A DNA stretch of 64,000 nt from an uncultured Lachnospiraceae bacterium (lineage in GTDB: Bacteria; Bacillota; Clostridia; Lachnospirales; Lachnospiraceae), in the NCBI GenBank assembly GCA_902793845.1, contig CADBFE010000001.1:19221-83220 (forward strand), given 5' to 3'. This document shows positions 6,706 to 45,262 of this stretch, piece after piece (position 1 is the first letter of the stretch; the number at the start of each line of letters is the position of its first letter). Below the pieces are notes generated by a model. That model was not told the origin of the DNA. It saw nothing but the letters and a program-made list of their open reading frames with translations, and did no database searches. A program made the translations under genes and the position numbers.

Positions 6706-7606
6706 CGGATTGATAAATGTATACAAAGAGCCCGGATTCACATCTATGGATGTGATAGCGGTGCTCCGGGGTATACTTGGGCAAAAAAAGATTGGGCACA
6801 CCGGCACGCTGGATCCTGCGGCAGAGGGTGTGCTCCTTGTATGTCTCGGCAATGCCACAAAGCTTTGTGACATGCTTGAAAATCATGACAAGACATACAG
6901 ATGTACGATGGTCCTGGGCAGGACCACCGATACTGAGGATACAACCGGTACTGTAACAGGGGAGTATCCGGTAAATGTAACAAAAGAGAGTGTAACAGAG
7001 GCAATCAAGTCTTTTATCGGTGATTATGACCAGATACCGCCGATGTATTCTGCCATAAAGGTTAATGGCAAAAAACTCTATGATATAGCAAGGAGCGGCG
7101 GCGAGGTAGAGCGAAAACCCCGTCATATAAAGATTTTTGATATAACTGATATAGTGACAGACCTGCCTAGAGTATCATTTACGGTAAGCTGCAGCAAGGG
7201 GACGTATATCAGATCTCTTTGCAGGGATATAGGAGAGAAGCTTTCCTGCGGAGGCTGCATGGAAAAACTGATCCGCATCAAAGCAGGTGATTTTGATATA
7301 AGCACATCCCTTAGGCTTGATGAGATTAAAAAACTGGCCGTTTCGGGAGATATTAATGAATCGGTGATACCGACTGAAAAAGTATTTGAAAAGTCACCTG
7401 TCCTTAAGGTAAAGCCTGAATATGCAAAGCTTATTGATAATGGCAATCCGCTGATGACAGAGTGTGTTGAACCTGCGATCATACCTGATAAAGGTCAGCG
7501 GTTCAGAGTGTACAATACGAACAATGTCTTTGTTGCCACATATATTTTTGACACTGAGAAAAACAGGCTGATGCCTGAAAAGATGTTTTTACAATATTCA
7601 TTATGA
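6698..7606 (+). CDS. truB: tRNA pseudouridine(55) synthase
   Basis: KIGHTGTLDP, QIPPMYSAIK, CSKGTYIRSL. Confidence 0.97.
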   Translation: MYNGLINVYKEPGFTSMDVIAVLRGILGQKKIGHTGTLDPAAEGVLLVCLGNATKLCDMLENHDKTYRCTMVLGRTTDTEDTTGTVTGEYPVNVTKESVTEAIKSFIGDYDQIPPMYSAIKVNGKKLYDIARSGGEVERKPRHIKIFDITDIVTDLPRVSFTVSCSKGTYIRSLCRDIGEKLSCGGCMEKLIRIKAGDFDISTSLRLDEIKKLAVSGDINESVIPTEKVFEKSPVLKVKPEYAKLIDNGNPLMTECVEPAIIPDKGQRFRVYNTNNVFVATYIFDTEKNRLMPEKMFLQYSL

Positions 7607-8547
7607 AGATAATCAGATACGATTTATCGGAAAATAAAAAAATAGATGAATTGGACGTGGAGAGAACAGCCGTTGCCATAGGCAAGTTTGACGGAGTCCA
7701 TAGTGGCCACAGATCTATCATAGAGGACCTGATCAGTAAAAAATCACTGGGACTTACGACTGTAGTCGTCTCGTTTGAACCTTATCCTGCAGAGTATTTC
7801 GGCATCGGAGATTTTAAATATTTATCCCTTTTTGAAGAAAAAGCAGCCATGCTTAAGGAATTCGGGATTGATATACTGATACTCCTTAAGTTTGACGGAT
7901 TTTCTGCAAACGTGACTCCGGAGAAATTCATAGAAGACTTTTTTGTGGACAAACTCCATATGGCATATATTGCAGCAGGTAAAGACCTCTCATTTGGCAG
8001 TAAGGGTGCAGGTAATGTATCGTTGCTAGAAAAATACAGCGGTGCATTTGATTATAGTATTAATGTAATCCCCAAACTGTGCGATGGAGATGCGGAGATA
8101 TCATCATCCCTTATCAGAAAAATGATTGAGGACGGTGATGTAAAGAGAGCAGGAGAGTACCTTGGATATCCCTATTCATTTACGGGAGAGGTCATCAGGG
8201 GGAGGCATCTCGGTTCGTCAATCGGATTCCCTACAATCAATGTAAAGCCTGATGACAAGAAAGTAATTCCAAAGTTTGGCGTATATTATTCATCCGTAAT
8301 TGTGGACGGGATTAAGTATTCAGGTCTTACAAATGTAGGTGTAAAGCCTACGGTTGGCAGCGACGGCGTATTACTGGAGACATATATATATGATTTTGAC
8401 CGTGATATATACGGAAAAACCGTAAAGGTATCATTACATGAATTTAAGCGCCCCGAAAAGAAGTTTGAGAGTGTGGAAGAACTCAAAAAAGCCCTTTCAG
8501 AGGATATTAAAGAGGGTAAAAATAACCAAAAAGCAATTCATATTTGA
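7603..8547 (+). CDS. ribF: Riboflavin kinase / FAD synthetase
   Basis: IGKFDGVHSGH, ISSSLIR, GFPTIN, NVGVKPT, LETYI. Confidence 0.96.
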   Translation: MKIIRYDLSENKKIDELDVERTAVAIGKFDGVHSGHRSIIEDLISKKSLGLTTVVVSFEPYPAEYFGIGDFKYLSLFEEKAAMLKEFGIDILILLKFDGFSANVTPEKFIEDFFVDKLHMAYIAAGKDLSFGSKGAGNVSLLEKYSGAFDYSINVIPKLCDGDAEISSSLIRKMIEDGDVKRAGEYLGYPYSFTGEVIRGRHLGSSIGFPTINVKPDDKKVIPKFGVYYSSVIVDGIKYSGLTNVGVKPTVGSDGVLLETYIYDFDRDIYGKTVKVSLHEFKRPEKKFESVEELKKALSEDIKEGKNNQKAIHI

Positions 8548-8687
8548 TATTGTTATGTGTAATAAAGCGAAAAAGTATATTCATGCTTGTTTTGGTTTAA
8601 CTCGTTATATAAAATTATATATGTCAGAAATGTTCTTTTAGAAGATTATTTGTTAGTAAATTTTTCTTTAGTTCGTAGGTAACGGAA

Positions 8688-10340
8688 ATGATTTTAAACA
8701 GTGTTATTTCGCTTGCCGGTGGTCTCGGACTGTTTCTCCTTGGTATGAACCTCATGAGTGACGGTATCGAAAAAGCAGCCGGAGCCAAGTTGCGTTCCAT
8801 ACTCGAGATGTTCACGACAAATCGTGTTATGGGTATGATCGTCGGATGTATTTTTACCGGTATCATTCAGTCATCATCGGCTTGTACAGCCATGGTTGTT
8901 TCATTTGTTAACTCAGGTCTGATGAATCTGTATCAGGCGGCGGGAGTAATATTCGGTTCCAACATCGGTACCACTATTACCGGTCAGCTTGTTTCATTCA
9001 ATTTATCTGCATATGCACCTATCATACTTTTATGTGGTGTACTGCTCACGATGTTCTCGAAGAATCTCACAGTTAAAAGGATCGGCGATGTGATAATCGG
9101 ATTCGGTGTCTTATTTATGGGTATTAAAGCCATGAGTTCTTCCATGACATCCCTTAATGATACAGGCCGTATCACAGAGATACTGATGGGACTTAAAAAT
9201 CCGCTTTATGCCATCGTGATCGGACTTGCGGTGACTGCAGTAGTTCAGAGCTCATCCGTGACTGTATCCATCGTACTGCTCATGGCCCAGCAGCATCTGT
9301 TTGTGGATACCAATATCTGTCTGTACATAATACTCGGATGCAATATCGGTGCATGTACGACAGCCCTTATCGCATCCCTTGCAGGTAAGAAGGATGCAAA
9401 GAGAGCAGCCCTCATACATCTGCTCTTTAACATCATCGGAACGATCATCATGTTTATCATCCTTCAGATTGCCATGGATCCGGTATCAGCCATGATCCAC
9501 AAGGTATCTTCTGATGAAGGACGTTTCGTAGCTAACGCCCACACAATATTTAAGGTATTCCAGGTAATCATATTATTACCTTTCTCAACACTGATAGTTA
9601 AGATGACTTACCTCATCGTACCCGGCAAGGATCAGAAAGTCGGATACCACGAAGCATTCCAGCTTCAGTATATCGGCGACAAGGTTCTCTTTAACCCGTC
9701 AACTGCCGTAGTAGACGGTATGAAGGAGCTTGAGAGAATGGCTTCTCTTGCATATGATAACCTGAACCGCTCTATGAATGCCCTGATCACACTGGATGAG
9801 GATGATATCAATCAGGTTTATGAAGTTGAGAAAAATATAGACTTCCTGAACAATTCGATAACCCATTATTTTGTAAAGATAAACCAGTCAACACTGCCTA
9901 TCGAAGACCTTAAAGAGCTGGGTTCCCTGTTCCATGTAGCCAACGATATTGAGCGTATCGGTGACCATGCGGAGAACATAGCCGATATGGCAATGAGGCG
10001 CAAGGCACTGGGCGTAGGATTCAGTGAGGATGCCCAGTCAGAACTGGCCCAGATGATGGCGAGTGTTGATGCCATGATAGAAAAGGCTATAAAGTGTATC
10101 CTTTCATCAGGTGACAAGACCAAACTGATGCTGGAGATATCTGAGCTTGAGGGCAAGATCGACTCCATGGAAAAACAGTTCCAGCAGCATCACATAGACA
10201 GACTGACAAAACAGCAGTGTACAGCGGAAGCCGGTATGATCTTCTCTGATGTAATATCAGGACTCGAGAGAGTATCGGATCACGCACTTAATATAGTCAG
10301 ATATCTTCAGAGAAGAGATCTGGCGGAGTTGACGGAATAA
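8688..10340 (+). CDS. Na+/phosphate cotransporter family protein with PhoU-like C-terminus
   Basis: Two QSSS repeats, GSNIGTT/GCNIGAC, hydrophobic N-terminal half, DIERIGDHAENI PhoU-like helices. Confidence 0.9.
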   Translation: MILNSVISLAGGLGLFLLGMNLMSDGIEKAAGAKLRSILEMFTTNRVMGMIVGCIFTGIIQSSSACTAMVVSFVNSGLMNLYQAAGVIFGSNIGTTITGQLVSFNLSAYAPIILLCGVLLTMFSKNLTVKRIGDVIIGFGVLFMGIKAMSSSMTSLNDTGRITEILMGLKNPLYAIVIGLAVTAVVQSSSVTVSIVLLMAQQHLFVDTNICLYIILGCNIGACTTALIASLAGKKDAKRAALIHLLFNIIGTIIMFIILQIAMDPVSAMIHKVSSDEGRFVANAHTIFKVFQVIILLPFSTLIVKMTYLIVPGKDQKVGYHEAFQLQYIGDKVLFNPSTAVVDGMKELERMASLAYDNLNRSMNALITLDEDDINQVYEVEKNIDFLNNSITHYFVKINQSTLPIEDLKELGSLFHVANDIERIGDHAENIADMAMRRKALGVGFSEDAQSELAQMMASVDAMIEKAIKCILSSGDKTKLMLEISELEGKIDSMEKQFQQHHIDRLTKQQCTAEAGMIFSDVISGLERVSDHALNIVRYLQRRDLAELTE

Positions 10341-12927: not shown

Positions 12928-15411
12928 TTAACCCATGACAACTTCAACTTTGTGAGTCTTGCCATCTCCGAATGCAGGTACAAGGTTGCCCTCGATTGCA
13001 TTGCCGTCTACAGTGATGCTCTTAACACCCTTGCAGATGTGGTTAGGATTTGTAACCTTGATGTCGTATGTGGCATTTCTGAACTGTCTTGTTGCATTAA
13101 GTCCGTCCCAAGCAGAAGGGATAGAAGGATCAATGCGGAGACCGTCAAAGTCTGCCTGTACACCGAGGATGTACTGAGATATAGCTACCATATTCCATGC
13201 AGCTGTACCTGTAAGCCATGAGTTCTTGCCCTGGCCAAAGTTCTTGCCTGTCTGACCGATATCAGAACCTGCATCCTTACCACCGATCATCTGACCGTAT
13301 ACATAAGGCTCTGTCTTGTGGATATCAGATGTCTCCTCTGTAAATGCAGGAGCGATTTCTGAATAGTACTTAAATGCCTGATCGCCCTGGCCTGCGTAAG
13401 CAGCTGCACAGATGATCCATGCATTGTTGTGAGTGAAGATACCTGCGTTCTCCTTGTATCCGCCGGGATATGTAGAGATCTCACCGTACTGGATGTAGTA
13501 CTTTGTAAATGCAGGGTTGTTAAGTACGAGACCAAACTTCGTATTAAGTCTCTCATCGATAGCAGCGAGAGTCTTAAGGTCTGCACCCTGATCCTTGCCG
13601 ACATCTGACATGATAGCGAATCCCTGGGGCTCGATGAAGATCTGGCCTTCCTCGCATTCTTTTGATCCCATCTTTTCGCCGTTGGCATCATATGCTCTGA
13701 GGAACCAGTCGCCGTCCCAAGCTGACTCCATGATGTTTTTCTTCATCTTGTCGATCTCAGCCTGAGCTGCAGCAGCTTCGTCATCTTTACCGAGGTGCTT
13801 TAAGATAGCTACGTAGTTAGGTCCTGTATATGTAAAGAGTGTAGCAACCATTACAGACTCAGCGATCTTTGAGTAGCCGCCTTCAGCAGCAAACTTGGGA
13901 TTGGTGTATGTCTGGAATGATTCACCGGGTGTATCTGAGTAGCATGACAGGTTGATGCAGTCGTTCCAGTCAGCACGCATTGCAAGAGGGAGACCGTGAG
14001 GTCCGAGGTTGTTTACAATGTGATAGAACGATACCTTGAGGTGATCGAGCATAGGCTGAGCGATAGACATATCATTGTCATAAGGTACCATCTCATCGAG
14101 GATAGCCCAATCGCCTGTCTCCTTGATGTAAGCTGATACAGAGAGGATGAGCCAGAGAGGATCGTCTGAGAAGTCTCCTCCGATATCGGCATTACCCTTC
14201 TTTGTAAGGGGCTGGTACTGATGGTAGCATCCACCGTCAGGGAACTGAGTAGAAGCGATGTCGATGATACGCTCCTTGGCTCTGTCGGGAATCTGGTGTA
14301 CAAATCCGAGTACATCCTGGTTGGAATCACGGAATCCCATACCACGGCCGATACCTGACTCGAAGTATGAAGCAGAACGAGAGAGGTTAAATGTAACCAT
14401 GCACTGATACTGGTTCCAGATATTAACCATACGGTTAACCTTGTCATCGGGAGTATCAACATTGAGGATACCGAGGAGCTTGTCCCAGTATGCCTTGAGC
14501 TCTGCCATACCCTGAGCAAATTTCTCAGGTGTGTTGTATTTTTCGATCATAGCCTTGGCTTTAACCTTGTTGATGGTCTTGCCGTCAGCCTCGAATTTCT
14601 GATCAACAGGCATCTCTACATAGCCGAGTACAAATACGAGTGTCTTTGTCTCGCCGGGCTTAAGTGTGATCTTCTTGAAGTGAGAAGCGATAGGAGCCCA
14701 TCCGTCTGCAAATGAGTTTGTAGCCTTGTTTGCAAGTACAGCTTCAGGATTGTTAAATCCGTTGTAGAGACCGATGAATGAATCTCTGTCTGTATCATAT
14801 CCGTCGATAGTATCGTTTACTGAGTAGAATGCAAAGTGATCACGGCGGTCTCTGTACTCTGTCTTGTGGTAAAGAACAGAACCGTCAACTTCTACACGAC
14901 CTGTTGAGAAGTTACGCTGGAAGTTGTTTGAGTCATCCTGTGCATCCCAGAGGCACCACTCTGCAAATGAGAAGAGTGAGAATGATTTCTCTGCTGATCC
15001 TTCATTTGTAAGTACTACCTGCTGAACCTCTCCGTCATAATCCTGGGGAACGAAGAATGTCACATTTACTTTAAGATCGTTTTTCTTACCGGTAATTTTT
15101 GTGTAACCCATACCGTGGCGGCACTCATACTCATCAAGCTCTGTCTTGACGGGAGACCAGCCGGGATTCCAGATGGTACCGTTATCATTGATATAGAAGT
15201 AACGACCTCCCATATCGATAGGAACATTGTTGTAACGATAACGTGTGATTCTGCGAAGGCGGGCATCTTTATAGAATGAGTAACCTCCTGCTGTGTTTGA
15301 AATCAGCGAAAAGAATCCCTGAGTTCCCAGATAGTTGATCCATGGATATGGAGTTCTGGGAGTGGTGATGACATACTCTCTGTTGGCGTCATCAAAGAAA
15401 CCGAATTTCAT
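12928..15411 (-). CDS. cbp: Cellobiose phosphorylase (GH94)
   Basis: [16 protein letters not shown]...[44 protein letters not shown]. Confidence 0.9.
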
Positions 15412-35101: not shown

Positions 35102-35899
35102 ATGAAAATGTTTTTCTTTAAAAGAAAGAAATCAGAACTTGATAAAAAAACAATTAAAGAAATAATTGATGCTGCCGATTGGATTATCGAATCATGTAAT
35201 AAGCCGGCTAAAACCGATTATGAAAAATCAGAAACTGAAAAAATAGAATCTGAAAAATCAAAATCATCCAATGAGGCAATTAAATATAGTTTAGCACGCC
35301 CGGTTACACTTAATACCGGATTAATTAGTGATTATTCAGAAGAACGAAAAGAAGGAATATTCAACGATTTATCTGATAAATCCGATAAAGACGTAATCGA
35401 AGAAAAAAGTGTAAATAAAGAAGCCGAATCCTCTGAATCTGAGAAAAAAAGCAATAAAAATGACGGTGTCAGGTACAGTTTAAATGATAATTATACAAGT
35501 GATTTTAATTGGCAGGACGACTACCTCGACCATATTGATAAATTATTAAAAGCATCAAAAAAAGTTGAGACATTTTCAGATAAAATAGAAAAATTTATAA
35601 AATTGAAAGGCTTAACAAGTGTTCAATTTTATAAAGCCGCAGACATAGACAGAAAAGTATATTCTGCTATGCGGAATACCCCCAATTATCAGCCTAAAAA
35701 AGAAACAGCCATAGCATGCTGTTTTGGACTGAAACTAAATCTGGAAGAGGCAGAAGATTTATTAAAATCAGCAGGGTATTCCTTGTCTACATCTATAAGG
35801 AGAGACGTTATTATCAGATATTGTCTGGATCTTAATAAATTTTCAATATTTGATATTAATGAGATTTTAGATGCAGCAGGAGAGAAGACTCTTCGGTAA
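35102..35899 (+). CDS. Putative XRE-like HTH regulator with charged low-complexity N-terminus
   Basis: C-terminal FYKAADIDRKVYSAMR...PKKETAIACCFGLKLNLEEAEDLLKSAGYSLS resembles the Firmicutes HTH domain often fused to macro domains (recalled). Confidence 0.7.
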   Translation: MKMFFFKRKKSELDKKTIKEIIDAADWIIESCNKPAKTDYEKSETEKIESEKSKSSNEAIKYSLARPVTLNTGLISDYSEERKEGIFNDLSDKSDKDVIEEKSVNKEAESSESEKKSNKNDGVRYSLNDNYTSDFNWQDDYLDHIDKLLKASKKVETFSDKIEKFIKLKGLTSVQFYKAADIDRKVYSAMRNTPNYQPKKETAIACCFGLKLNLEEAEDLLKSAGYSLSTSIRRDVIIRYCLDLNKFSIFDINEILDAAGEKTLR

Positions 35900-35920: not shown

Positions 35921-35967
35921 AAGCACGGTTGAACGGCAATTGGAACCCGATAGAACCGTGCTTTTTT
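35921..35967 (+). terminator. Terminator-like inverted repeat after the XRE gene
   Basis: AAGCACGGTT (35921-30) / AACCGTGCTT (35954-63) followed by a T run; long 23-nt loop. Confidence 0.5.
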
Positions 35968-36241: not shown

Positions 36242-37342
36242 ATGAGAGCAATACAAACAGGAAGTATATTTAAAATATTCGATGATAGTCTTAAGACTTA
36301 TGATCAGTTGCCAGTAAAGACATACATGGTTGGATATACCCAGCAGGAAGGATGTTTTCTGATTCAACATCCTAATATTGTTGTGACTGAGAAAACATAT
36401 GGAATTCATAATAGTAAAGTGAAGAAGGTTATGAATTCGTTTGAAAACTATGAAAGAAGCCTTGGCATAATTCTTAGTGGTGATAAGGGTATTGGCAAAA
36501 CGATTTTTGCTAAGTTAATTTGTCAAAATGCATTATCGAAAGGTTTACCTGTGATTATCGTGGACTCATGCTTGCCTGGGGTAGCAAGATTTATTGAATC
36601 AATTGAGCAAGAGTGTGTGATTATGTTTGATGAATTTGATAAGATATTCAGAAGTGGAAGAAATCGGGATGATGATGATGATCAAGCGGCATTGCTTAGT
36701 TTGTTTGATGGAACAGCGGGTGGAAAGAAACTTTTCATTGTGACTTGTAATGAGTTATATGGTCTCAATGAGTATATTGTGAACCGTCCCGGACGTTTCC
36801 ATTACCATTTCAGATTTGAATATCCTTCTACTCAAGATATCAAAGAATATCTATCAGATAAACTAAATTCACAATATTCAGACGAAATTGAAAAAGTGGT
36901 AGGGTTTGCGCAGAAGATTAATCTTAACTATGACTGTTTGAGAGCTATTGCCTTTGAATTGAATCAGGGGATTCCGTTTAAGGAGGCTGTGGCAGACTTA
37001 AACATCCTTAATATTAACAGGGAAGAGTACAAGGTAATTCTTTATTATGAGGATGGGACTATACTTCATAATTATCATTTTTCAACAAATTTATTTGATA
37101 ACAATGGTTGCTGGACTTGGGTAGATTTATACGACGACAAAGGTGAGGAGATTGTCAGCGTGAGATATGACAAAGAACTTGCAACTTATGACATTGCTCA
37201 TAATACAACAGTGATTCAGGGAGATACATTATTGCTTGAGTATGAGTGTGATGCCGACGATGAAAAATTGTATAAGAATAAAAAGCCATTACACATCACT
37301 TTTGCTAAATGCAATGTTCGAAATTTACATTACATTGTTTAA
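36242..37342 (+). CDS. AAA+ ATPase
   Basis: Walker A GDKGIGKT, Walker B VIMFDE, NRPGRF arginine-finger region; AAAGGA RBS. Confidence 0.88.
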   Translation: MRAIQTGSIFKIFDDSLKTYDQLPVKTYMVGYTQQEGCFLIQHPNIVVTEKTYGIHNSKVKKVMNSFENYERSLGIILSGDKGIGKTIFAKLICQNALSKGLPVIIVDSCLPGVARFIESIEQECVIMFDEFDKIFRSGRNRDDDDDQAALLSLFDGTAGGKKLFIVTCNELYGLNEYIVNRPGRFHYHFRFEYPSTQDIKEYLSDKLNSQYSDEIEKVVGFAQKINLNYDCLRAIAFELNQGIPFKEAVADLNILNINREEYKVILYYEDGTILHNYHFSTNLFDNNGCWTWVDLYDDKGEEIVSVRYDKELATYDIAHNTTVIQGDTLLLEYECDADDEKLYKNKKPLHITFAKCNVRNLHYIV

Positions 37343-37355
37343 GGAGGATAACATT

Positions 37356-39098
37356 ATGCCAAATTTTATTGAACATATTGGTTTTGACGAATTTATAAAT
37401 AGAGAAAAGGATATTACTGGGTTAGTTGGCTATGCTATTGAGAATGGAAAACCAGTGATTGGATACTACGGACATCCATATATTAATTATCATGATGGGG
37501 ATGCACAATTTATAATAAGAACTCGTATTAATCAGGAAAATAAGAAAATCGAAGTTGTTGGGTTTGATACTCATGGTGATGGCAACTCTGTATGGAAGGT
37601 TAGATTGCATGAAATAAATATAGATGATAGTGATGATCCTACTAGTAAGCGTGTATGTGTAACAAGAGAAGATGGGTCAGGATTGACCGTAATAAATATT
37701 GTTAATGCTGATGTCCTGCCTAGTTTTGCCAAGGATGAAATATATAGTTTGCAGATGATAGCGTTCCCAATTGATATAAAATATTACGAGTCAAGTGATG
37801 ATTATGAGGAAGATGAAAAATTAAACGTTGATGGAAAAAATTGGCTACTTGGAGAGGGGACAGTCTTTCCTTTGGGCTTTATGTCAAATCATATGTTATC
37901 AGAAGATGGCGATATTGATGAAATAAAGAAAATTGATCCTAAACAGGATGATGTAGTAGTTGTTCGTGGAGTTGTAAAAAGTCTTTATTATGGTGTGTTA
38001 CAAAATGGAGAAGAAAAGGTTAGGGCATATATTAGATGTATTGTAGAAACCGCATATGGTGACCTTGAAATAGATCATGGATTTAACGCTGTTGATGAAG
38101 AACAACGAAAAAACATAAAAATTGGGTCAACGGTTGTGGCGATGGTTGTTTTGTCAGGAGATGCAGCTATCTACGAATATTCCGATGGTTTTGTTAAGGA
38201 TGAAGAGCATAATCTTAGACTACTTCGATATACATTTATTAATGGGGATCCTGAGAGGTTGAGATTAGTTTTATCAGAAGATGCTGAATATTATTCGGAT
38301 TCAAATGGAAAAAACTATAAGGGAAAGGAAGAGATTATTTCAAGAATTAAGTATGTTCAGGAAAATGGAAAACATAAATATTATGCACATATGGCGAAAA
38401 TAACTTCGGTTGACGATAATGGTGCTTCAGATTTAATTTATCCGGTTGGAACAAAGTGCGTGATTTTGGCATCTGAAGACAGTAATAATTTTGAATCAAT
38501 AGCGTTTGTGACAACAAATAGCCAGGGATATATTACTAAGATACATACATCTATGGATAGTAATTATCATTTTAAGGTTGAGGAATTGCCCAATATAAGT
38601 GATGATATCAAAATTCCTGAATCATACCAGGAAAGAATGATATTAAGGGCTAGATATCATGGCTTCCATGACTGTTCAACTGATGAAATGCTTGAAAAAG
38701 TACATGTTTCTAGTCGGGATGAAGAAGTAATAAAAATGTTTATTTCTGAAAAATTATTATGTAAGGGGCCGATAAAACCAGAAATTGCCGAGAATATCTT
38801 TGGATATATTTTTGCAAAAGGAATAGAAGACAATGCTTTCCCAGTAATGAATCATGTTCCATCTTTTGAAAATTGTTTTAATGCTTCAGATGGTATTTTT
38901 GATGCAAAAGCAGGGGGAAAGCTAAAAGAAAAATTGGAGTATGCGATGAACAAAGGGAAGCAATTCTTAAAGGATTACAATGATATTTCTGATTCCAAGG
39001 ATATATTTATCGATGAAATAGCAGAGGCACTCAAATATGTTTATGCTTTAGCAAAAGAATGTGCACAGAGTTATTTGAAAGAGTTGGAAGAAAATTAA
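37356..39098 (+). CDS. Hypothetical 580-aa acidic protein
   Basis: AAGGAGG RBS before ATG 37356 (the track start 37236 overlaps the upstream gene); no motif recognised. Confidence 0.8.
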   Translation: MPNFIEHIGFDEFINREKDITGLVGYAIENGKPVIGYYGHPYINYHDGDAQFIIRTRINQENKKIEVVGFDTHGDGNSVWKVRLHEINIDDSDDPTSKRVCVTREDGSGLTVINIVNADVLPSFAKDEIYSLQMIAFPIDIKYYESSDDYEEDEKLNVDGKNWLLGEGTVFPLGFMSNHMLSEDGDIDEIKKIDPKQDDVVVVRGVVKSLYYGVLQNGEEKVRAYIRCIVETAYGDLEIDHGFNAVDEEQRKNIKIGSTVVAMVVLSGDAAIYEYSDGFVKDEEHNLRLLRYTFINGDPERLRLVLSEDAEYYSDSNGKNYKGKEEIISRIKYVQENGKHKYYAHMAKITSVDDNGASDLIYPVGTKCVILASEDSNNFESIAFVTTNSQGYITKIHTSMDSNYHFKVEELPNISDDIKIPESYQERMILRARYHGFHDCSTDEMLEKVHVSSRDEEVIKMFISEKLLCKGPIKPEIAENIFGYIFAKGIEDNAFPVMNHVPSFENCFNASDGIFDAKAGGKLKEKLEYAMNKGKQFLKDYNDISDSKDIFIDEIAEALKYVYALAKECAQSYLKELEEN

Positions 39099-39125
39099 AT
39101 GTTTATAGAGATTAGGTAGAAATAT

Positions 39126-40232
39126 ATGATTGAACGAAGAGTAAATACTTCTCAGATGCCGGTTTCGAAGTTTGAGAATAAATTCGTAAATGTATATACA
39201 AAATTGATAGAATCAGGAACTTCATTTAAGCTGTTTCCGTCGGTAATGTTATGGGGGCCTCCTGGAGTTGGTAAATCTCAGGCTGTAAAGCATATTGCAG
39301 AAAAAGTTTCCGATAAAACAGGTAAAAAAGTTTCGGTTACTGACGTCAGACTTTTGCTTTTTAATCCCATAGATCTTCGTGGTATTCCGACTGCAAATGC
39401 AGATAAGACATTGGCGGTATGGCTCAAACCCAAAATCTTTCAAATGGATGATAGTAAAGATGTAGTTAATATTCTGTTCTTGGATGAAATATCTGCAGCA
39501 CCTCCATCAGTACAGGCGGCTGCGTATCAAATTGTTTTAGACAGAACAATAGGAGAACATGAACTTCCTGATAATTGTATTGTTATTGCGGCGGGAAATC
39601 GTGTTACAGATAAATCTGTAGCGTACGCAATGCCTAAAGCGTTGGCAAATCGTCTTATGCACATAGAAGTTGTGGGAGAACCACTTGGATGGCGGGAGTG
39701 GGCAACTTCCCATAATATACACCCGTATGTAATAGGTTTTATAAATTACAGTCCGGCAATGCTTATGGGATTTGATCCGTCATTGGAAGACCTAGCATTT
39801 CCGACACCGAGATCATGGGAAATGGTTAGTAATATTTTGAATTATATTTCAGATAATCTTGATGAAGTTATGCCACTTATTTCAGGATGTATTGGAAGTG
39901 ATACGGCTTATAGTCTGAAATCGTGGACTGAAATGTATGAGGTGATTCCGGAAATAACTGAGATACTTGATGGAAAACACAAGGATATTCCAACACGTCC
40001 GGAAATAGCTTTGGCTTTGATGTCTCAGATGGGAATGTATTTACGTGAACATCATAGTGTTGAAGAGGTAAAGAATGCCCTTGATTTTGTATTCAATATG
40101 CCTATTGAATACAGAAGTCAGGCCTTAGTGGATTTTCTTGCGGTAAAAGAAATCCATGGATTATTAAGAAATGATGATCGTTATTGCAACTGGTTTCTAC
40201 GTTCAGGAAGATATTGGGAAGACTATGCATGA
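39126..40232 (+). CDS. MoxR-like AAA+ ATPase (DUF2201-partner type)
   Basis: Walker A GPPGVGKS, DLRGIP, Walker B LFLDE, AAGNR, ALANR, PTPRSWE. Confidence 0.88.
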   Translation: MIERRVNTSQMPVSKFENKFVNVYTKLIESGTSFKLFPSVMLWGPPGVGKSQAVKHIAEKVSDKTGKKVSVTDVRLLLFNPIDLRGIPTANADKTLAVWLKPKIFQMDDSKDVVNILFLDEISAAPPSVQAAAYQIVLDRTIGEHELPDNCIVIAAGNRVTDKSVAYAMPKALANRLMHIEVVGEPLGWREWATSHNIHPYVIGFINYSPAMLMGFDPSLEDLAFPTPRSWEMVSNILNYISDNLDEVMPLISGCIGSDTAYSLKSWTEMYEVIPEITEILDGKHKDIPTRPEIALALMSQMGMYLREHHSVEEVKNALDFVFNMPIEYRSQALVDFLAVKEIHGLLRNDDRYCNWFLRSGRYWEDYA

Positions 40233-41602
40233 ATATGACCAAACTTCGTAGACAAAGATTGAAGTATAAAATTCAGGATGCAAGAGCAGAGTTATTGATG
40301 GAAAAGCCTTTCTATGGACTGCTACTGATGTATTTAAAATTTGTAGCTGTTGATAATATAAGGAATATTTCAACAAACGGAAGATGCGTGTATTTTTGCC
40401 CTGCATTTATAGAAAAACTTACATTATACGAATTGCAGTTTGTTCTATGTCATCAGGTTATGCATATATTAAACGGTGATATATGGCGAGATGTTGCTTT
40501 TGCTGGTGATGAGTATCACAGGGCATTTGACATAGTGATAAATCGTGAATTGCTAAAACGAGGATGGAATGTTTCAGGACTAACGCATCTTGGGAAATTA
40601 CAGTATACTATTCCACAAAGTCGGTACAAACTGGATGAACTGAATGCGTATGAGATATACCAATGTTTTCCGTTCAAATTGAAAATGCTTGATGATAGGA
40701 CTCGAAAGCGTTATATGGCAGATTCAGATTTTTGGTGGGATTATAAGGATGAAAATGGATTTGAAGGTATAACAATTATTGATTTACCGAAGATAACTAA
40801 ATGGGCCGATAAACCGATTGGCTTAAATGGTGAGACTATTGAAGATGTGGATGGAAATGCAGGAAATGGTGGTACGAGTTCGGACATTTCAGGAAGCGCA
40901 AACATAGAAATACTAAAAAGTGAACTGCTTGCTGATTTTTGGGAAAATAGAGCACAGCTTGCTATGCAGGCTTCGCGAGGTCAAAATAGAGGTAAGGGTG
41001 TAGGTGATATGCCAGATTCGGCCAAACGAGCAATGGACAAACGTCATAAAAGCAAAACTGACTGGAGAGATCTTCTCAACACTTTTGTACAGGAAGAGAT
41101 TACGGATTATTCTTTTGCTCCACCGGATAGACGATTTATGGATTCGGATTTCTTTTTACCAGATTTCAATGAAAAAGAGGCAAATATTAAAGATATTCTT
41201 TTTATGGCTGATACATCGGCTTCTATTGATCGGCATGAACTCGGAGTTGTTTATTCGGAAATTAAAAGTGCAATAGAACAATTTAATGGCAAGATTAGCG
41301 GAAAATTGGGATTCTTTGATGCGGCAGTGACTCCACCGATTTTATTTGAGAGCGTAAAAGATTTGGAGAAAATTATACCCTATGGTGGTGGAGGTACAGA
41401 TTTCAGAGCAATCTTCAAGTATATAAATAAAGAAATGCAAGATTGTTTACCGTCTGCGATAGTTATTTTTACAGATGGAGACGGACCATATCCGGAAGAG
41501 CAGGATATTCCGAATGTTCCGGTTCTTTGGTTAATTAATAATGATGAAGAAAAGCCACCATTTGGTAAAGTAGCAAGAATATTACCTGATCACTATAATT
41601 GA
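40229..41602 (+). CDS. DUF2201-like metallopeptidase-fold + vWA domain protein
   Basis: ATG overlaps the upstream TGA (ATGA); N-terminal PFYG..STNG..HQVMH; C-terminal MIDAS DTSAS, GGGTDF, FTDG. Confidence 0.85.
   Translation: MNMTKLRRQRLKYKIQDARAELLMEKPFYGLLLMYLKFVAVDNIRNISTNGRCVYFCPAFIEKLTLYELQFVLCHQVMHILNGDIWRDVAFAGDEYHRAFDIVINRELLKRGWNVSGLTHLGKLQYTIPQSRYKLDELNAYEIYQCFPFKLKMLDDRTRKRYMADSDFWWDYKDENGFEGITIIDLPKITKWADKPIGLNGETIEDVDGNAGNGGTSSDISGSANIEILKSELLADFWENRAQLAMQASRGQNRGKGVGDMPDSAKRAMDKRHKSKTDWRDLLNTFVQEEITDYSFAPPDRRFMDSDFFLPDFNEKEANIKDILFMADTSASIDRHELGVVYSEIKSAIEQFNGKISGKLGFFDAAVTPPILFESVKDLEKIIPYGGGGTDFRAIFKYINKEMQDCLPSAIVIFTDGDGPYPEEQDIPNVPVLWLINNDEEKPPFGKVARILPDHYN
41594..41599 (+). 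promoter_or_regulatory. Possible -10 box for the retron ncRNA inside the vWA gene 3' end
   Basis: Perfect TATAAT 18 nt upstream of the first inverted repeat; -35 position weak (TAGCAA). Confidence 0.4.
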
Positions 41603-41616
41603 TTAGGGTGATATAT

Positions 41617-41785
41617 ACACGGAACTCTAGTGTAGCCGGCTAGTGCTGGCATGTTCAGCGATTCGCTGTTCGTAAAATAATCTTTGTTACATTTAATGGC
41701 ATCTGCTTCAACGTAGCAGAAGGCACGCTGACACGTGCTTATCTACGCCTTCGCAGAAGCGATATATAACTGTTTTGTTCCGTGT
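41617..41785 (+). ncRNA. Retron msr-msd ncRNA
   Basis: Terminal inverted repeats ACACGGAAC (41617-25) / GTTCCGTGT (41777-85); two short msr-type hairpins (41635-50, 41656-68); long imperfect msd-type hairpin 41696-41763; ends just before the RT RBS (AAGGAGG 41796-802). Confidence 0.82.
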
Positions 41786-41810
41786 GAGACCATGAAAGGA
41801 GGGTGGAAAA

Positions 41811-42725
41811 ATGAATATGATTGTTTATAAAGAATTATCCACCCTTTGTCATGATCTTGGGTTTTCGGCAAGAGCATTATACTTTGCAAGCAATACAATT
41901 GAGAATCATTATCATGATGTTGAAATTCCAAAAGGGAATGGCGAAACAAGATTACTGCATGTACCAGATAATTTCATGAAGGCGATTCAGAGGAGTATTG
42001 CAAAAAACATTCTGTTTTATTATGAAATATCTCCTCATGCTGTTGCATACAGAGTATTAGGCAGTACAAAACTAAATGCTTTTCCGCATGTTGGTAAAGA
42101 TATGGTGATGAAATGTGATATACGAAAGTTTTTTGATCATATTACTTTTCAGATGCTTAGAAATAAGGTGTTTCCCTCTTCAGTTTATTCGGAGAGTAAT
42201 AGTATTCTTCTTTCAGTTCTTTGTACGTATAGAGGATCAATTCCTCAAGGTGCACCGACATCTCCAGTGATTTCAAATATTATATTAAGAGATTATGATT
42301 TACGTGTTGGAAAATGGTGTTCTGAAAGAAATATTTCATATACAAGATACTGTGACGATATGACTTTTTCAGGAAATTTTGATGCAACAAAGGTTAAAGC
42401 GTTTATAAAAGACGAACTGAAAAAAGAAGGATTCTTTTTAAATGGAAAGAAGACGGTTGTCCTTCATCAGGGACAAAGAATGGAGGTTACCGGTATTGTT
42501 GTAAATGAAAAGATTTCAATTCCAAGAAATTACAAGCGAAGACTTCGACAGGAATTATACTATTGTAAGAAAATTGGATGGAAGAATCATCTTAAAAAAA
42601 CAGGAATTCATGAAAATGTTGATTCGTATAGAAAGAAAATCTTGGGAAGGATTAATTATGTACTCTTAATTGAACCGAATAATAAAGAAATGAGTGAACT
42701 CAAAGATTGGGTATTAAACAATTAA
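41811..42725 (+). CDS. Retron-type reverse transcriptase (304 aa)
   Basis: IPKGNG, region X NAFPH (NAxxH), DIRKFFDHI, PQGAPTSPVISN, YTRYCDDMTFSG, region Y VTGIVVN; no maturase or endonuclease extension. Confidence 0.92.
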   Translation: MNMIVYKELSTLCHDLGFSARALYFASNTIENHYHDVEIPKGNGETRLLHVPDNFMKAIQRSIAKNILFYYEISPHAVAYRVLGSTKLNAFPHVGKDMVMKCDIRKFFDHITFQMLRNKVFPSSVYSESNSILLSVLCTYRGSIPQGAPTSPVISNIILRDYDLRVGKWCSERNISYTRYCDDMTFSGNFDATKVKAFIKDELKKEGFFLNGKKTVVLHQGQRMEVTGIVVNEKISIPRNYKRRLRQELYYCKKIGWKNHLKKTGIHENVDSYRKKILGRINYVLLIEPNNKEMSELKDWVLNN

Positions 42726-42940
42726 TTATTTCAGAAACATTTAGTATTTAACGAAAACTTTGGCGATGTTAGTCCACAAAATTTTAGACGTTGGCTTTTA
42801 TAATTTGATTATTTAAATAAAGTATTTTTAATTACTGTCACGATTGCTGTTAGAAGTATATAATAATATTTTAGATAGATATTTAATGTATGATAACGTC
42901 AATAGGGACCAATATATAGATTGGGCATAAATGAAAAAAT

Positions 42941-43777
42941 ATGGATACTATTTATTGTAGAAAATGTGGAAAACAAATATTATCGGACAGCGATTATTGT
43001 ATGTATTGTGGCGAAAAAATAATTTTTGTCACAGAAATAAAATCTAGTGATAATAATTTAGTAAATCAAAATATTAAAGAACGTATTATTAAAAAGAATA
43101 AATTTGATAAAAATAATTTTCTTTATAAAACACTTTCTTTTATAAAGAAAAATATAACTCATTTGCTATTTGGCGGATTGGTTATATTTGCTTTTATTGT
43201 ATTAATAACAACAGTAAGTATTAATATGGCTCAAACTGAGAAAAAAAGCGATAATACTCAAAATAATAATAATCAAACAAATAATACTCAAGCCAACAAA
43301 AATGATTCTCTGGAAGACGAAGAAAAAGAATTAATACCATATAATGCATATCATGGGGAAATAATAATTAAGCCTTCCTATTATAGAACATGTCCTTTTG
43401 TAGTTCATACAGATGAAGGAGAAAATTATTATATTTATCTTAAATATATAGGTGCTCCTTCTTATTCCGTTGAGAAAAGAGAAAAAAATCCAAAGGCATC
43501 AAATAATGAAAATAATATTTCTGTTTATGCAGTTGGAGGGAAAACAATTAATATTGATGTACCTATTGGAAAATATGAAATGTATTATTGTACGGGAGAT
43601 GTTTTTTATGGAAACGAAAAACGTTTTGGTGATGAAACAAGAGCCTATGTAGCAGATGATATTTTAGTATTTTATGTTGACGATAATTATTACCAAGGGA
43701 ATGAAATCACATTATATTCAGTTGTAAATGGAAATATGGACACATCAGTAATTAATATAGATGATTTTCCTAAATAA
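42941..43777 (+). CDS. N-terminal zinc-ribbon, single-TM membrane protein
   Basis: CRKC-x10-CMYC at residues 6-23, TM helix near residues 75-95, Asn/Gln linker, C-terminal beta-rich domain. Confidence 0.78.
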   Translation: MDTIYCRKCGKQILSDSDYCMYCGEKIIFVTEIKSSDNNLVNQNIKERIIKKNKFDKNNFLYKTLSFIKKNITHLLFGGLVIFAFIVLITTVSINMAQTEKKSDNTQNNNNQTNNTQANKNDSLEDEEKELIPYNAYHGEIIIKPSYYRTCPFVVHTDEGENYYIYLKYIGAPSYSVEKREKNPKASNNENNISVYAVGGKTINIDVPIGKYEMYYCTGDVFYGNEKRFGDETRAYVADDILVFYVDDNYYQGNEITLYSVVNGNMDTSVINIDDFPK

Positions 43778-43789
43778 TAAGGAGAGAAT

Positions 43790-45262
43790 ATGAGTCTTTA
43801 TAGTTTGTTTTATAATATTTTAACTGCATTATTTTGTTTATTGTCATTGAAATTTGATTTAATGATTATAAAGAGTATTTCGGTTTTTTTAGGTATAACT
43901 GCACTGTTTGCACCGATATTTGGAGCTTTATATAGATTCAAAAATAATATTAATGAAAAAAACAGTTCATCATATGATGCATTTTCAATCGCTATTGCAT
44001 TTTTCACTTTTGAATATAGTTTGAATTTGATATTAGGAACACGGGCGTTGTCGGTTGGTCTATTGTTATACGTTATTTCTGTTATAGTTTTTTTAGAAAT
44101 AAATCGAAAGGAAATAATTATAGAACAAAATTCAACCTCTAAAAAAAGAGAAAATTATAAAAGAAAAATTTCTATTTTATCGATACTATGTATGATTGTT
44201 GACATAGTATTATATTTAGTTTTTATTGTTCTATATTTTAAGAAGGTAAATGAAGCGGTTAAATATTTTTGTGTGATTTTGGCTTTTGCATCACCTTTGT
44301 ATCCTATTTTTGTTAAAAATTATAGAATTAATAATCATATACAATCAAAAATAAATAATGCATTAGAAAATATATCTGCTTGTTTTGTTTTTGTTGTTTA
44401 CTATAATTATCTTACTTATTTATTGGGGATTAAAATTTATGCTGCTTTTATTTCTGTAGCGGCAACATTGGTTTCACTTTTTTTTCATAAAAAAATATAC
44501 CCTTATTATGATGATTATAAAAAATATGAACCCTTAGTAAATGAAAATAAAAAAACATTTGAAGAAAAAGCGTTAAATATTTCAAGAGAAAATGAAATAA
44601 GCGCATTAATAAAAGAACACATAGAAGACAAAGAATATACTCCGGAAAGCTTTTTTTATGCCAGGGAAGAAGCTTTATTTGGTTTGTATAAAGACCATAT
44701 TATAAGTAAGTCTGAATGTTTATACATGGCCAAATTAGAAATAAAAACAGTTATATTAGATTTGCTTAAAACAATAATAATTACTGAAAGTGATTTTTAT
44801 AATGAATCATTTTCTGTTGATCATGCGGCTGAATATGCGTATAAGAATTGTATTACAGATATTAATAATATTGATGAATTAGAAAGTAAAATAAATCAAA
44901 AATATTCAGGATATAATTCTAGAGTAAGAGAAAAGGCAAAGATAGCATTTCCTCAGATTTATGTTATTTATAAAACATATATAAATAATATTATGGATAA
45001 ATTATCTGATATAGAAGATTCCTATAAGAAAATAGAAAAAGTTGATAAATCTTTACAATCGCAAAAACTTCCAATGAAAAAAGAAAAAATAAGTAAAGAT
45101 AATAAAGTCGAAGAACAGTTGTACGAGGATTCACTAAATAACAATTATACGAAAAATAAAACAACTAATCATGAAAAATTATATTGCAGAAAATGTGGAA
45201 CCGAACTTGTTATAGATAGTGAATTTTGTTATAAGTGTGGTACAAAAGTAATTCGCATATAA
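43790..45262 (+). CDS. Polytopic membrane protein with C-terminal zinc ribbon
   Basis: About 8 hydrophobic segments in the N-terminal half, soluble C-terminal half, CRKC-x10-CYKC at the C-terminus; very AT-rich. Confidence 0.75.
   Translation: MSLYSLFYNILTALFCLLSLKFDLMIIKSISVFLGITALFAPIFGALYRFKNNINEKNSSSYDAFSIAIAFFTFEYSLNLILGTRALSVGLLLYVISVIVFLEINRKEIIIEQNSTSKKRENYKRKISILSILCMIVDIVLYLVFIVLYFKKVNEAVKYFCVILAFASPLYPIFVKNYRINNHIQSKINNALENISACFVFVVYYNYLTYLLGIKIYAAFISVAATLVSLFFHKKIYPYYDDYKKYEPLVNENKKTFEEKALNISRENEISALIKEHIEDKEYTPESFFYAREEALFGLYKDHIISKSECLYMAKLEIKTVILDLLKTIIITESDFYNESFSVDHAAEYAYKNCITDINNIDELESKINQKYSGYNSRVREKAKIAFPQIYVIYKTYINNIMDKLSDIEDSYKKIEKVDKSLQSQKLPMKKEKISKDNKVEEQLYEDSLNNNYTKNKTTNHEKLYCRKCGTELVIDSEFCYKCGTKVIRI

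Follow-up and report, generated by a model that had tools for sequence, protein, structure and literature searches.

We have analysed a 64,000-nucleotide stretch of contig CADBFE010000001.1 from an uncultured Lachnospiraceae bacterium (hereafter, the window), in which a retron of the Ec107-like group shares a tightly packed cluster with a MoxR ATPase and a protein carrying a von Willebrand factor type A (vWA) domain. The cluster is probably an undescribed retron-based defence system: it is a retron with an uncatalogued accessory module that is conserved in a sub-population of its relatives, and its function is what we infer below. Across the loci compared, the conserved unit is formed by the retron non-coding RNA (ncRNA), its reverse transcriptase (RT), MoxR and a vWA protein with an HQxxH motif, and the two genes that precede them in the window, coding for an AAA+ ATPase (AAA1) and a 580-aa protein, are optional. 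An earlier note, made from the letters of this DNA, had put forward all five genes and the ncRNA as a candidate retron system built on MoxR and vWA. Its retron stood, as did the choice of an uncatalogued pair and the linkage seen from the vWA protein (10 of 14 loci); the linkage seen from the RT did not (2 of 80 homologues).

From its sequence, the retron, that is, the ncRNA plus the RT, is real. The RT gene (41811-42725, plus strand) encodes a protein with a Pfam RVT_1 domain whose best PADLOC model was RT_Ec107-like (E=6.9e-122), ahead of RT_III-A and all other retron RT models, and which carries the NAxxH, YxDD and VTG motifs of retron RTs (NAFPH at 89, YCDD at 180 and VTG at 226). The NCBIfam model of the retron St85 family also matched it at 1.9e-62, with a score of 211 bits that lies below the cut-off of 235 bits. 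By these matches the RT falls into Mestre clade 2, the Ec107-like retrons, an ‘orphan’ branch for which no specifically associated protein was described (Mestre et al. 2020, PMC7736814). In a 2026 survey of SPIRE (PMC13712802), the Ec107-like retrons were the second most abundant group, with 192 candidates of which 92% were host-associated and 93% came from Bacillota; no specific partner emerged there either, the top accessory being PDH_N (n=8 of 192). The window resembles Retron-Eco5 (Ec107) and clade 2 in its best RT model, gut Bacillota hosts and ncRNA architecture, and most of the relatives that we collected are orphans too. It differs in belonging to a sub-population coupled to MoxR and a vWA(HQxxH) protein, sometimes through overlapping open reading frames (ORFs).

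The ncRNA (msr-msd, 41604-41796, plus strand) was delimited by inverted repeats, covariation and a covariance model. Its 9-bp arms, a1 (41617-41625, ACACGGAAC) and a2 (41777-41785, GTTCCGTGT), enclose two msr hairpins and a long msd hairpin, and the AG that follows a1 (41629-41630) was invariant in an alignment of 32 homologues, the G at 41630 being the probable branching G. No RNA family of Rfam was found in the region at gathering thresholds, and the single-sequence fold was modestly better than those of shuffled sequences (z=-2.3). An inverted-repeat scan of 84 RT upstream regions placed the a1 and a2 arms at the same position in most of the 84 loci, with differing sequences and preserved complementarity (for example, GTGGAACA/TGTTCCAC, GCGGGACA/TGTCCCGC, GCAGAGCA/TGCTCTGC and CGGACGGCA/TGCCGTCCG). 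The 32-homologue alignment was made from fixed windows (-212 to -8) of all members of the half of the RT tree that contains our RT, without any selection on structure. RNAalifold proposed 27 pairs for it, 21 of them with compensatory double changes, spanning a1/a2, the two msr hairpins and the msd tip. The covariance model built from this alignment (R1) scored 106 bits on the window ncRNA, and it placed an ncRNA immediately upstream of the RT and on the right strand in 46 loci from the other half of the tree, which had not been used for building; with these, nearly every remaining homologue has the ncRNA ahead of its RT, and elsewhere in the approximately 1 Mb scanned it gave no further matches. 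Position upstream of the RT, a1/a2 repeats, msr and msd hairpins and a conserved, probable branching G are all present, and the ncRNA and RT should produce multicopy single-stranded DNA (msDNA). The retron of the earlier note was borne out by the RT model, the covarying pairs and the independent R1 matches.

The retron is the last part of a compact arrangement on the plus strand. AAA1 (36242-37342), the first gene of the operon, is followed by the genes for the 580-aa protein (37356-39098), MoxR (39126-40232) and the vWA protein (40229-41602), a fusion of DUF2201_N and vWA, all of them called as ORFs. Reading out the sequence confirmed the five co-oriented genes as the earlier note had drawn them: a 13-nt gap with a GGAGG ribosome-binding site inside between AAA1 and the 580-aa gene, a 27-nt gap between the latter and MoxR, an ATGA at 40229-40232 in which the MoxR stop and the vWA start overlap, the a1 arm (41617) 14 nt past the vWA stop (41602), and the ribosome-binding sequence AAAGGAGGG ahead of the RT start codon (ATG, 41811). 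A scan of the interval between the vWA gene and the RT for terminator-like sites found none, in agreement with that note. Upstream, a strong intrinsic terminator on the plus strand (35921-35967, a AAGCACGGTT...AACCGTGCTT hairpin and then a T-run) closes the preceding gene, so the operon starts after ~35970.

MoxR is translationally coupled to the vWA gene. The protein matches Pfam AAA_3/AAA_5, and both of its Walker motifs are intact (A, GPPGVGKS at 44; B, ILFLDE at 116); it had no match in the Protein Data Bank (PDB) by sequence at E<0.01. The vWA protein matches PF13203 (DUF2201_N, 1.9e-26) and PF09967 (DUF2201, 3.7e-14). Its N-terminal domain is a minigluzincin-like zincin by its profile match to MJ1213 (4qhf), and its C-terminal vWA domain has a complete metal ion-dependent adhesion site (MIDAS), consisting of D328-x-S330-x-S332 (DTSAS), T390 and D416, five residues that were invariant in 54 sequences. 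The AlphaFold2 (AF2) model of the protein, searched with Foldseek, gave vWA/MIDAS matches, MDN1 and NorQD among them. Pairs of MoxR and vWA proteins are established as couples of chaperone and co-chaperone, and the window has what defines such a couple: intact Walker motifs beside a complete MIDAS vWA, joined by the ATGA overlap. What it lacks is an intact zincin metallopeptidase motif, in that HQVMH (residues 75-79, nt 40451-40465) stands in the place of HExxH, which the sister clade keeps. The catalytic Glu is replaced by Gln in all members of the sub-lineage examined, including all the retron-linked ones examined, and by Val (HVLMH) in locus L186, and the zincin domain is therefore predicted to be dead across the clade. 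Since the residue is lost throughout these members, the proteolytic effector that the earlier note had considered is unlikely. E-to-Q zincins are classical substrate traps.

The accessory genes of the window are not among the catalogued retron effectors. None of the four accessory proteins matched the retron-effector models of PADLOC; AAA1 and MoxR gave weak P-loop matches only (IetA, DolB), and the 580-aa and vWA proteins gave none. Neither do the genes correspond to the effectors of retron types I-XIII (Mestre et al. 2020), and in full-text literature searches no paper was found in which a retron is combined in such a way with MoxR, DUF2201 or von Willebrand/vWA; as the earlier note had it, the MoxR/vWA pair is not a known retron effector. 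Like the tripartite retrons of types I-XIII (such as Ec86, Ec78/PtuAB and Sen2), the window has an RT, an ncRNA and accessory genes of the same orientation within a single operon, and its accessory module depends on the retron more than the retron does on it, which is what a guarded effector would lead one to expect. It differs from them in that no toxin domain can be recognised and in that the accessory pair is a chaperone-type AAA+/vWA couple. Among the closest published parallels are the MoxR-vWA NTP-dependent conflict systems, some of which are linked to RTs (Kaur, Burroughs, Iyer and Aravind 2020, PMC7159879). These also couple MoxR translationally to a MIDAS-vWA protein and have variable third components and variable neighbourhoods of the conflict type, but their RTs are those of diversity-generating retroelements mutating an effector, not of retrons, and the zincin-bearing DUF2201-type vWA goes unmentioned in that paper (0 occurrences of ‘DUF2201’).

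Seen from the vWA protein, the coupling with the retron is conserved far beyond chance. In a sample of 399 Clostridia genomes, searched with a DUF2201 family threshold of E≤1e-20, 11 genomes had the RT, 8 a member of the DUF2201 family and 3 one of the HQxxH clade. The RT is directly adjacent in each of these 3, which come from three different families, though each element occurs in less than 3% of the sample; leaving out the genome of the window, 2 of 2 compares with 10 of 398 (hypergeometric p ~6e-4). One of the two others (G396, locus L092) has the order ncRNA-RT-AAA1-586aa-273aa-MoxR-vWA on one strand, which is the gene set of the window with the retron first. The other (G010, L098) reads WYL regulator-ncRNA-RT-MoxR-vWA, also on one strand, and there the RT ORF (7253-8218) overlaps the MoxR ORF (8212-9321) by 7 nt. 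A metagenome scan with the vWA alignment added loci L100 to L104: MoxR-vWA-RT is the order in L100, L101 and L103; the L102 contig ends after the vWA gene, where R1 still finds the ncRNA; and L104 has no retron. Six further contexts (L192-L197), picked by the length of their contigs, came from a collection of 5.8 billion proteins, all six with HQxxH and the MIDAS site; ncRNA and RT are present in L192 and L196 and missing from L193, L195 and L197, and L194 was uninformative.

In a tree of 87 DUF2201 proteins, a 12-row H(Q)xxH clade without SNF2 helicase separates with 100% support from a 75-row HExxH clade. Ten of the 14 informative loci of the inner HQxxH clade carry a retron on the same strand (the window, L100, L101, L102, L103, L007, L092, L098, L192 and L196), and four do not (L104, L193, L195 and L197). 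Three gene orders occur: MoxR-vWA-ncRNA-RT in the window, L100, L101, L103, L007, L192 and L196, and those of L098 and L092. MoxR orthologues with 59-81% identity (tblastn with the window MoxR as query) adjoin the retron in L007, L092, L098, L101, L103, L192 and L196. Among the linked loci, RT identities correlate with those of MoxR (r=0.56, Mantel p=0.006) and of the vWA protein (r=0.53, Mantel p=0.002), with L103, whose RT comes from a distant sub-clade, as the outlier.

Seen from the RT, the picture is different, and the dependence is asymmetric: an HQxxH pair usually has a retron, and a retron is usually without the pair. We collected 80 RT homologues with 47-64% identity, all but one labelled as Clostridia or other Bacillota. 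The MoxR/vWA pair lies beside the RT in two of them, directly upstream on the same strand in L007 and convergent in L041, and neither AAA1 nor the 580-aa protein was found beside any of the 80. The convergent RT of L041 and the identical L164 faces an SNF2-MoxR-vWA triad and was treated as a chance neighbour. We also dropped L070, a partial sequence outside the 87-protein tree, because its vWA fragment is of the HExxH clade and is found at a distance of 3.5 kb and four genes from the RT. The MoxR/vWA pair is an optional partner of this RT clade, with a linkage that is specific for a sub-population only.

Several of these observations, together with others, weigh against a functional coupling. 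For 78 of the 80 RT homologues there is no MoxR/vWA neighbour, which is the finding (close RT homologues with unrelated neighbours) that the earlier note had named as telling against its own proposal, and clustering of all flanking ORFs in the 80 loci gave no conserved neighbour. The linked RTs are scattered over the RT tree, the sister of each being without the pair, and in nine of ten orphan-retron genomes no relative of DUF2201 occurs anywhere. It follows that the retron either suffices by itself or has other partners, and given the same two figures (2 of 80 and 9 of 10) MoxR-vWA is not a general effector of the RT clade. Four of the 14 HQxxH-clade loci have no retron, the distant RT of L103 indicates exchange, and the identity correlation could partly reflect shared host phylogeny. 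A TATAAT at 41594-41599, which the earlier note had raised as a caveat, is indeed present and could be part of a promoter of the retron’s own, with a -35 element that is poor by eye (3 of 6). Finally, no toxic effector domain is recognisable in the proteins of the operon, whose peptidase is predicted to be dead.

One could argue from these points that the orphan retron, MoxR-vWA and AAA1/580-aa are independent neighbours, carried together as co-cargo of variable defence or RNA-repair islands with no functional interaction. The extreme variability of RT neighbourhoods would fit such an explanation, as would the exchanged RT of L103, the possible retron promoter at 41594 and the fact that each module also occurs alone (the 580-aa protein in integrative elements, MoxR-vWA in L104, L193, L195 and L197, and lone retrons). 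We nevertheless consider it unlikely. The layout is on one strand and tight or overlapping in 10 loci and in three gene orders; the RT is adjacent in every HQxxH genome in spite of the rarity of both elements; the identities of RT and MoxR correlate; the 580-aa protein was found in 2 of the 399 genomes, that of the window and G396, both times inside the RT/MoxR/vWA cluster; and the SNF2 sister clade has one distinct locus with an adjacent retron among 75 rows, a convergent one. That the retron and MoxR-vWA interact functionally is what we regard as reasonably probable from the whole of this analysis.

The five genes do not form a conserved unit as the earlier note had it, because AAA1 and the 580-aa protein are missing from most of the retron-MoxR-vWA loci (L007, L098, L103 and L192) and occur with MoxR-vWA and no detected retron in L186 and L195. 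By its matches, AAA1 is a classic-clade AAA+ ATPase (PF00004, 2e-13; PDB sequence matches to the AAA domains of AFG2, p97 and Mpa), with intact Walker A (GDKGIGKT at residue 80) and Walker B (VIMFDE at 126) and a C-terminal half without an assigned domain. The 580-aa protein, a candidate effector, had no match in Pfam, PADLOC, PHROG or NCBIfam and belongs to a family of at least 159 homologue clusters. It combines beta-rich N-terminal domains, an NTF2/SnoaL-like domain and a helical C-terminus; its AF2 model from a deep alignment reached a predicted local distance difference test score (pLDDT) of 88, with PDB neighbours only for the internal NTF2/SnoaL-like domain. Both proteins co-occur in L092, L180, L186 and L187, and the add-on was seen in 3-6 loci.

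The contexts of this add-on are diverse. L180 (4295-12689) holds the closest relatives of both proteins (88% identity for AAA1 and 72% for the 580-aa homologue), followed by a non-orthologous AAA_5 ATPase of 515 aa, a VWA protein of 628 aa, an AAA_21/AriA-like ATPase of 277 aa, and then an ncRNA of the same kind with an Ec107-like RT. Analogous genes have here replaced the MoxR-vWA pair beside ncRNA and RT, which speaks for a functional association. Other arrangements are MoxR-vWA(HVxxH)-AAA1-577aa-...-PNK-like-Thg1 in L186, MoxR-vWA-578aa in contig P0004, shorter homologues of 412-416 aa upstream of MoxR-vWA in L195 and L196, and AAA1-582aa alone in L187. L092 and L098 are close (94% identity in the vWA N-terminus, 83% in the RT and 90% in MoxR) yet differ by AAA1-586aa-273aa between RT and MoxR, so we regard these genes as a separable module that has repeatedly joined MoxR-vWA and/or the retron. 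In L181-L185 the 580-aa homologue is the single cargo gene beside a gene for an excisionase-type helix-turn-helix (HTH) protein, in L181 and L182 also with an integrase. The homologues of L181 (5593-10772) and L182 have ~45% identity and sit in small integrative elements with a tyrosine integrase, HTH_17/AlpA, Cys_rich_VLP, RepA_N and Fic, which suggests that the protein can act alone. In L092 the AAA1 homologue (13952-15087, minus strand) is split into two overlapping frames of 94 and 284 aa, either by a frameshift or by an assembly error.

Phage relatives of these proteins raise the question of whether the genes serve a prophage or an integrative element (in replication, assembly or superinfection exclusion) and not host immunity. 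Each of the four recognisable proteins has a relative in PHROG (phrog_2376, 1297, 1314 and 2825). AAA1 belongs to phrog_2376 (E=4e-106) and has full-length homologues of ~40% identity in lytic phages (Herelleviridae) that infect Enterococcus and Bacillus; the phage contexts of these homologues (L190, which is gp215 of Enterococcus phage EF24C, and a faecal phage scaffold) contained no 580-aa partner. Transposases or integrases flank some loci, and DUF2201/MoxR pairs are found in jumbo and N4-like phages. Processing of virion proteins has been proposed as the role of the MoxR with a metallopeptidase-vWA protein that occurs in jumbo phages (Iyer et al. 2021, PMC7824862). That pair shares with ours the MoxR and the N-terminal metallopeptidase fused to vWA; it differs in that the window protein has lost the Glu and has a retron as its partner, and the phage DUF2201 relatives, of which Phage G gp576 is the best match, are only 23-28% identical. 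A scan of viral contigs with the vWA protein gave no relatives, and the region of the window has no integrase or structural phage genes. A prophage was rejected here, the neighbours being genes for a Mur-family ligase, a trigger-factor-like peptidyl-prolyl isomerase and GNAT acetyltransferases. Taken together, we find such a phage or mobile-element role highly improbable.

The HExxH sister clade, from gut Clostridia, has another partner. In 57 of its loci a ~1,170-aa SNF2 helicase lies upstream of MoxR and DUF2201, and this clade has an adjacent retron in a single distinct locus of its 75 rows (L041, identical to L164), in convergent orientation. The two clades have orthologous MoxR (50-60% identity) and DUF2201 (35-39%) proteins in the same overlap-coupled order; they differ in the motif (intact HExxH against HQxxH) and in the partner, an SNF2 helicase upstream in one and a retron in the other. 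The retron appears to take the helicase’s place as the nucleic-acid-handling partner, which suggests a common plan in which a nucleic-acid-handling sensor (helicase or retron) is combined with a MoxR-vWA switch. The SNF2-MoxR-DUF2201(HExxH) operon is widespread in gut metagenomes (L107-L179; for instance L127:5366-11305 and L160:252-8563), and its SNF2 gene is often followed by a ~675-aa AAA+/AAA_lid_6 ATPase. Its vWA protein matched no PADLOC model, and the triad is a candidate for an undescribed conflict system, sister of the retron-linked clade.

RNA-repair genes surround a number of the loci. In L009, L014 and L043 the direct neighbour of the retron is an operon consisting of a WYL regulator pair, TROVE-vWA or SPFH, RtcB and a nucleotidyltransferase; in L007 and L092 such an RtcB operon adjoins retron and MoxR-vWA. 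In all five the Ec107-like retron is immediately downstream of the operon, and at least two distant RT sub-clades are represented; in L014, RtcB (1708-2916) is directly upstream of the ncRNA. A WYL pair follows MoxR-vWA in L104, L105, L106 and L197, a PNK-like kinase with Thg1 does so in L186 and L197 and, by gene sizes and position, probably in L104, and an RlaP-type nucleotidyltransferase also flanks the HQxxH pair. No genes of the RtcB, WYL, PNK or Thg1 type were found near the cluster in the window. WYL-domain regulators are common beside defence systems, and their presence at several loci counts in favour of a defence role. The adjacency to RNA-repair genes could come from shared islands or point to a functional connection with RNA damage and its repair.

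These neighbours bear on another possibility, namely that MoxR-vWA is an assembly or maturation chaperone for the particle of RT, msDNA and RNA (and elsewhere for RNA-repair complexes) and not an effector. MoxR-vWA couples act in this way for NorQD, CbbQO and viral tail assembly. Iyer et al. (PMC7824862) propose such a role for the pair of metallopeptidase-vWA and MoxR found in phages. The dead zincin speaks against proteolysis as the output, the HQxxH pairs adjoin RtcB, RlaP-type nucleotidyltransferase, PNK-like plus Thg1 and TROVE-vWA genes, and the retron by itself also stands beside RtcB operons (L009, L014 and L043). Most Ec107-like retrons, however, manage without the pair; basic msDNA synthesis therefore cannot require it, and we consider a chaperone role quite unlikely.

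In the retron-based defence system that we favour, the core would be an Ec107-like retron coupled to MoxR and to its cognate vWA-MIDAS adaptor with a dead HQxxH zincin, which in the window would be extended by AAA1 and the 580-aa NTF2-domain protein. By analogy with characterised retrons and with the thresholding MoxR-vWA systems (PMC7159879), the RT-msDNA complex would do the sensing or guarding. The vWA protein would bind its partner, perhaps the RT-msDNA particle, perhaps a protein of the phage or the host, through the MIDAS face and/or the substrate-trapping cleft of the dead peptidase. Perturbation of the msDNA by a phage would then lead the MoxR hexamer to remodel the complex with ATP, and the outcome might be growth arrest or interference with the infection, possibly executed by the AAA1/580-aa module. 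As the retron also exists without MoxR-vWA, the pair would be optional, as an output or accessory dependent on the retron, and not the reverse. We tentatively propose, in addition, that MoxR with a dead-zincin vWA protein (with or without AAA1/580-aa) may be a partner of ‘orphan’ Ec107-like retrons and define a new retron type, and that, in view of the RNA-repair adjacency, these retrons may work by having a nucleoprotein or RNA-repair complex remodelled at the expense of ATP, not by a classical toxin.

If this is true, it would give a first handle on how the Ec107-like retrons, the most abundant retron clade of the gut, work. They are the main clade without a known accessory protein and hence without a mechanism (PMC7736814), and the MoxR-vWA sub-population would offer a concrete, clonable system for what they sense and control. 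The list of retron outputs would, moreover, be extended by an AAA+ chaperone/adaptor pair, not by a toxin.

Genes at the borders of the cluster were considered as well. The RT is followed by 215 AT-rich bases with a promoter-like site (42835-42864) and then by two genes for zinc-ribbon membrane proteins (42941-45262). We rejected this pair as a retron effector, and it is treated as outside the system (of which it is probably not a part), because it has no homologue in the RT, vWA and 580-aa loci searched and is preceded by the promoter-like site. On the other side, upstream of the terminator, lies a gene for a 265-aa protein (35102-35899). The C-terminal part of this protein has homologues with 42-46% identity in L180, L195 and L196, a short way upstream of the 580-aa-type gene in each, and the protein may belong to the system as one more component with a loose linkage.

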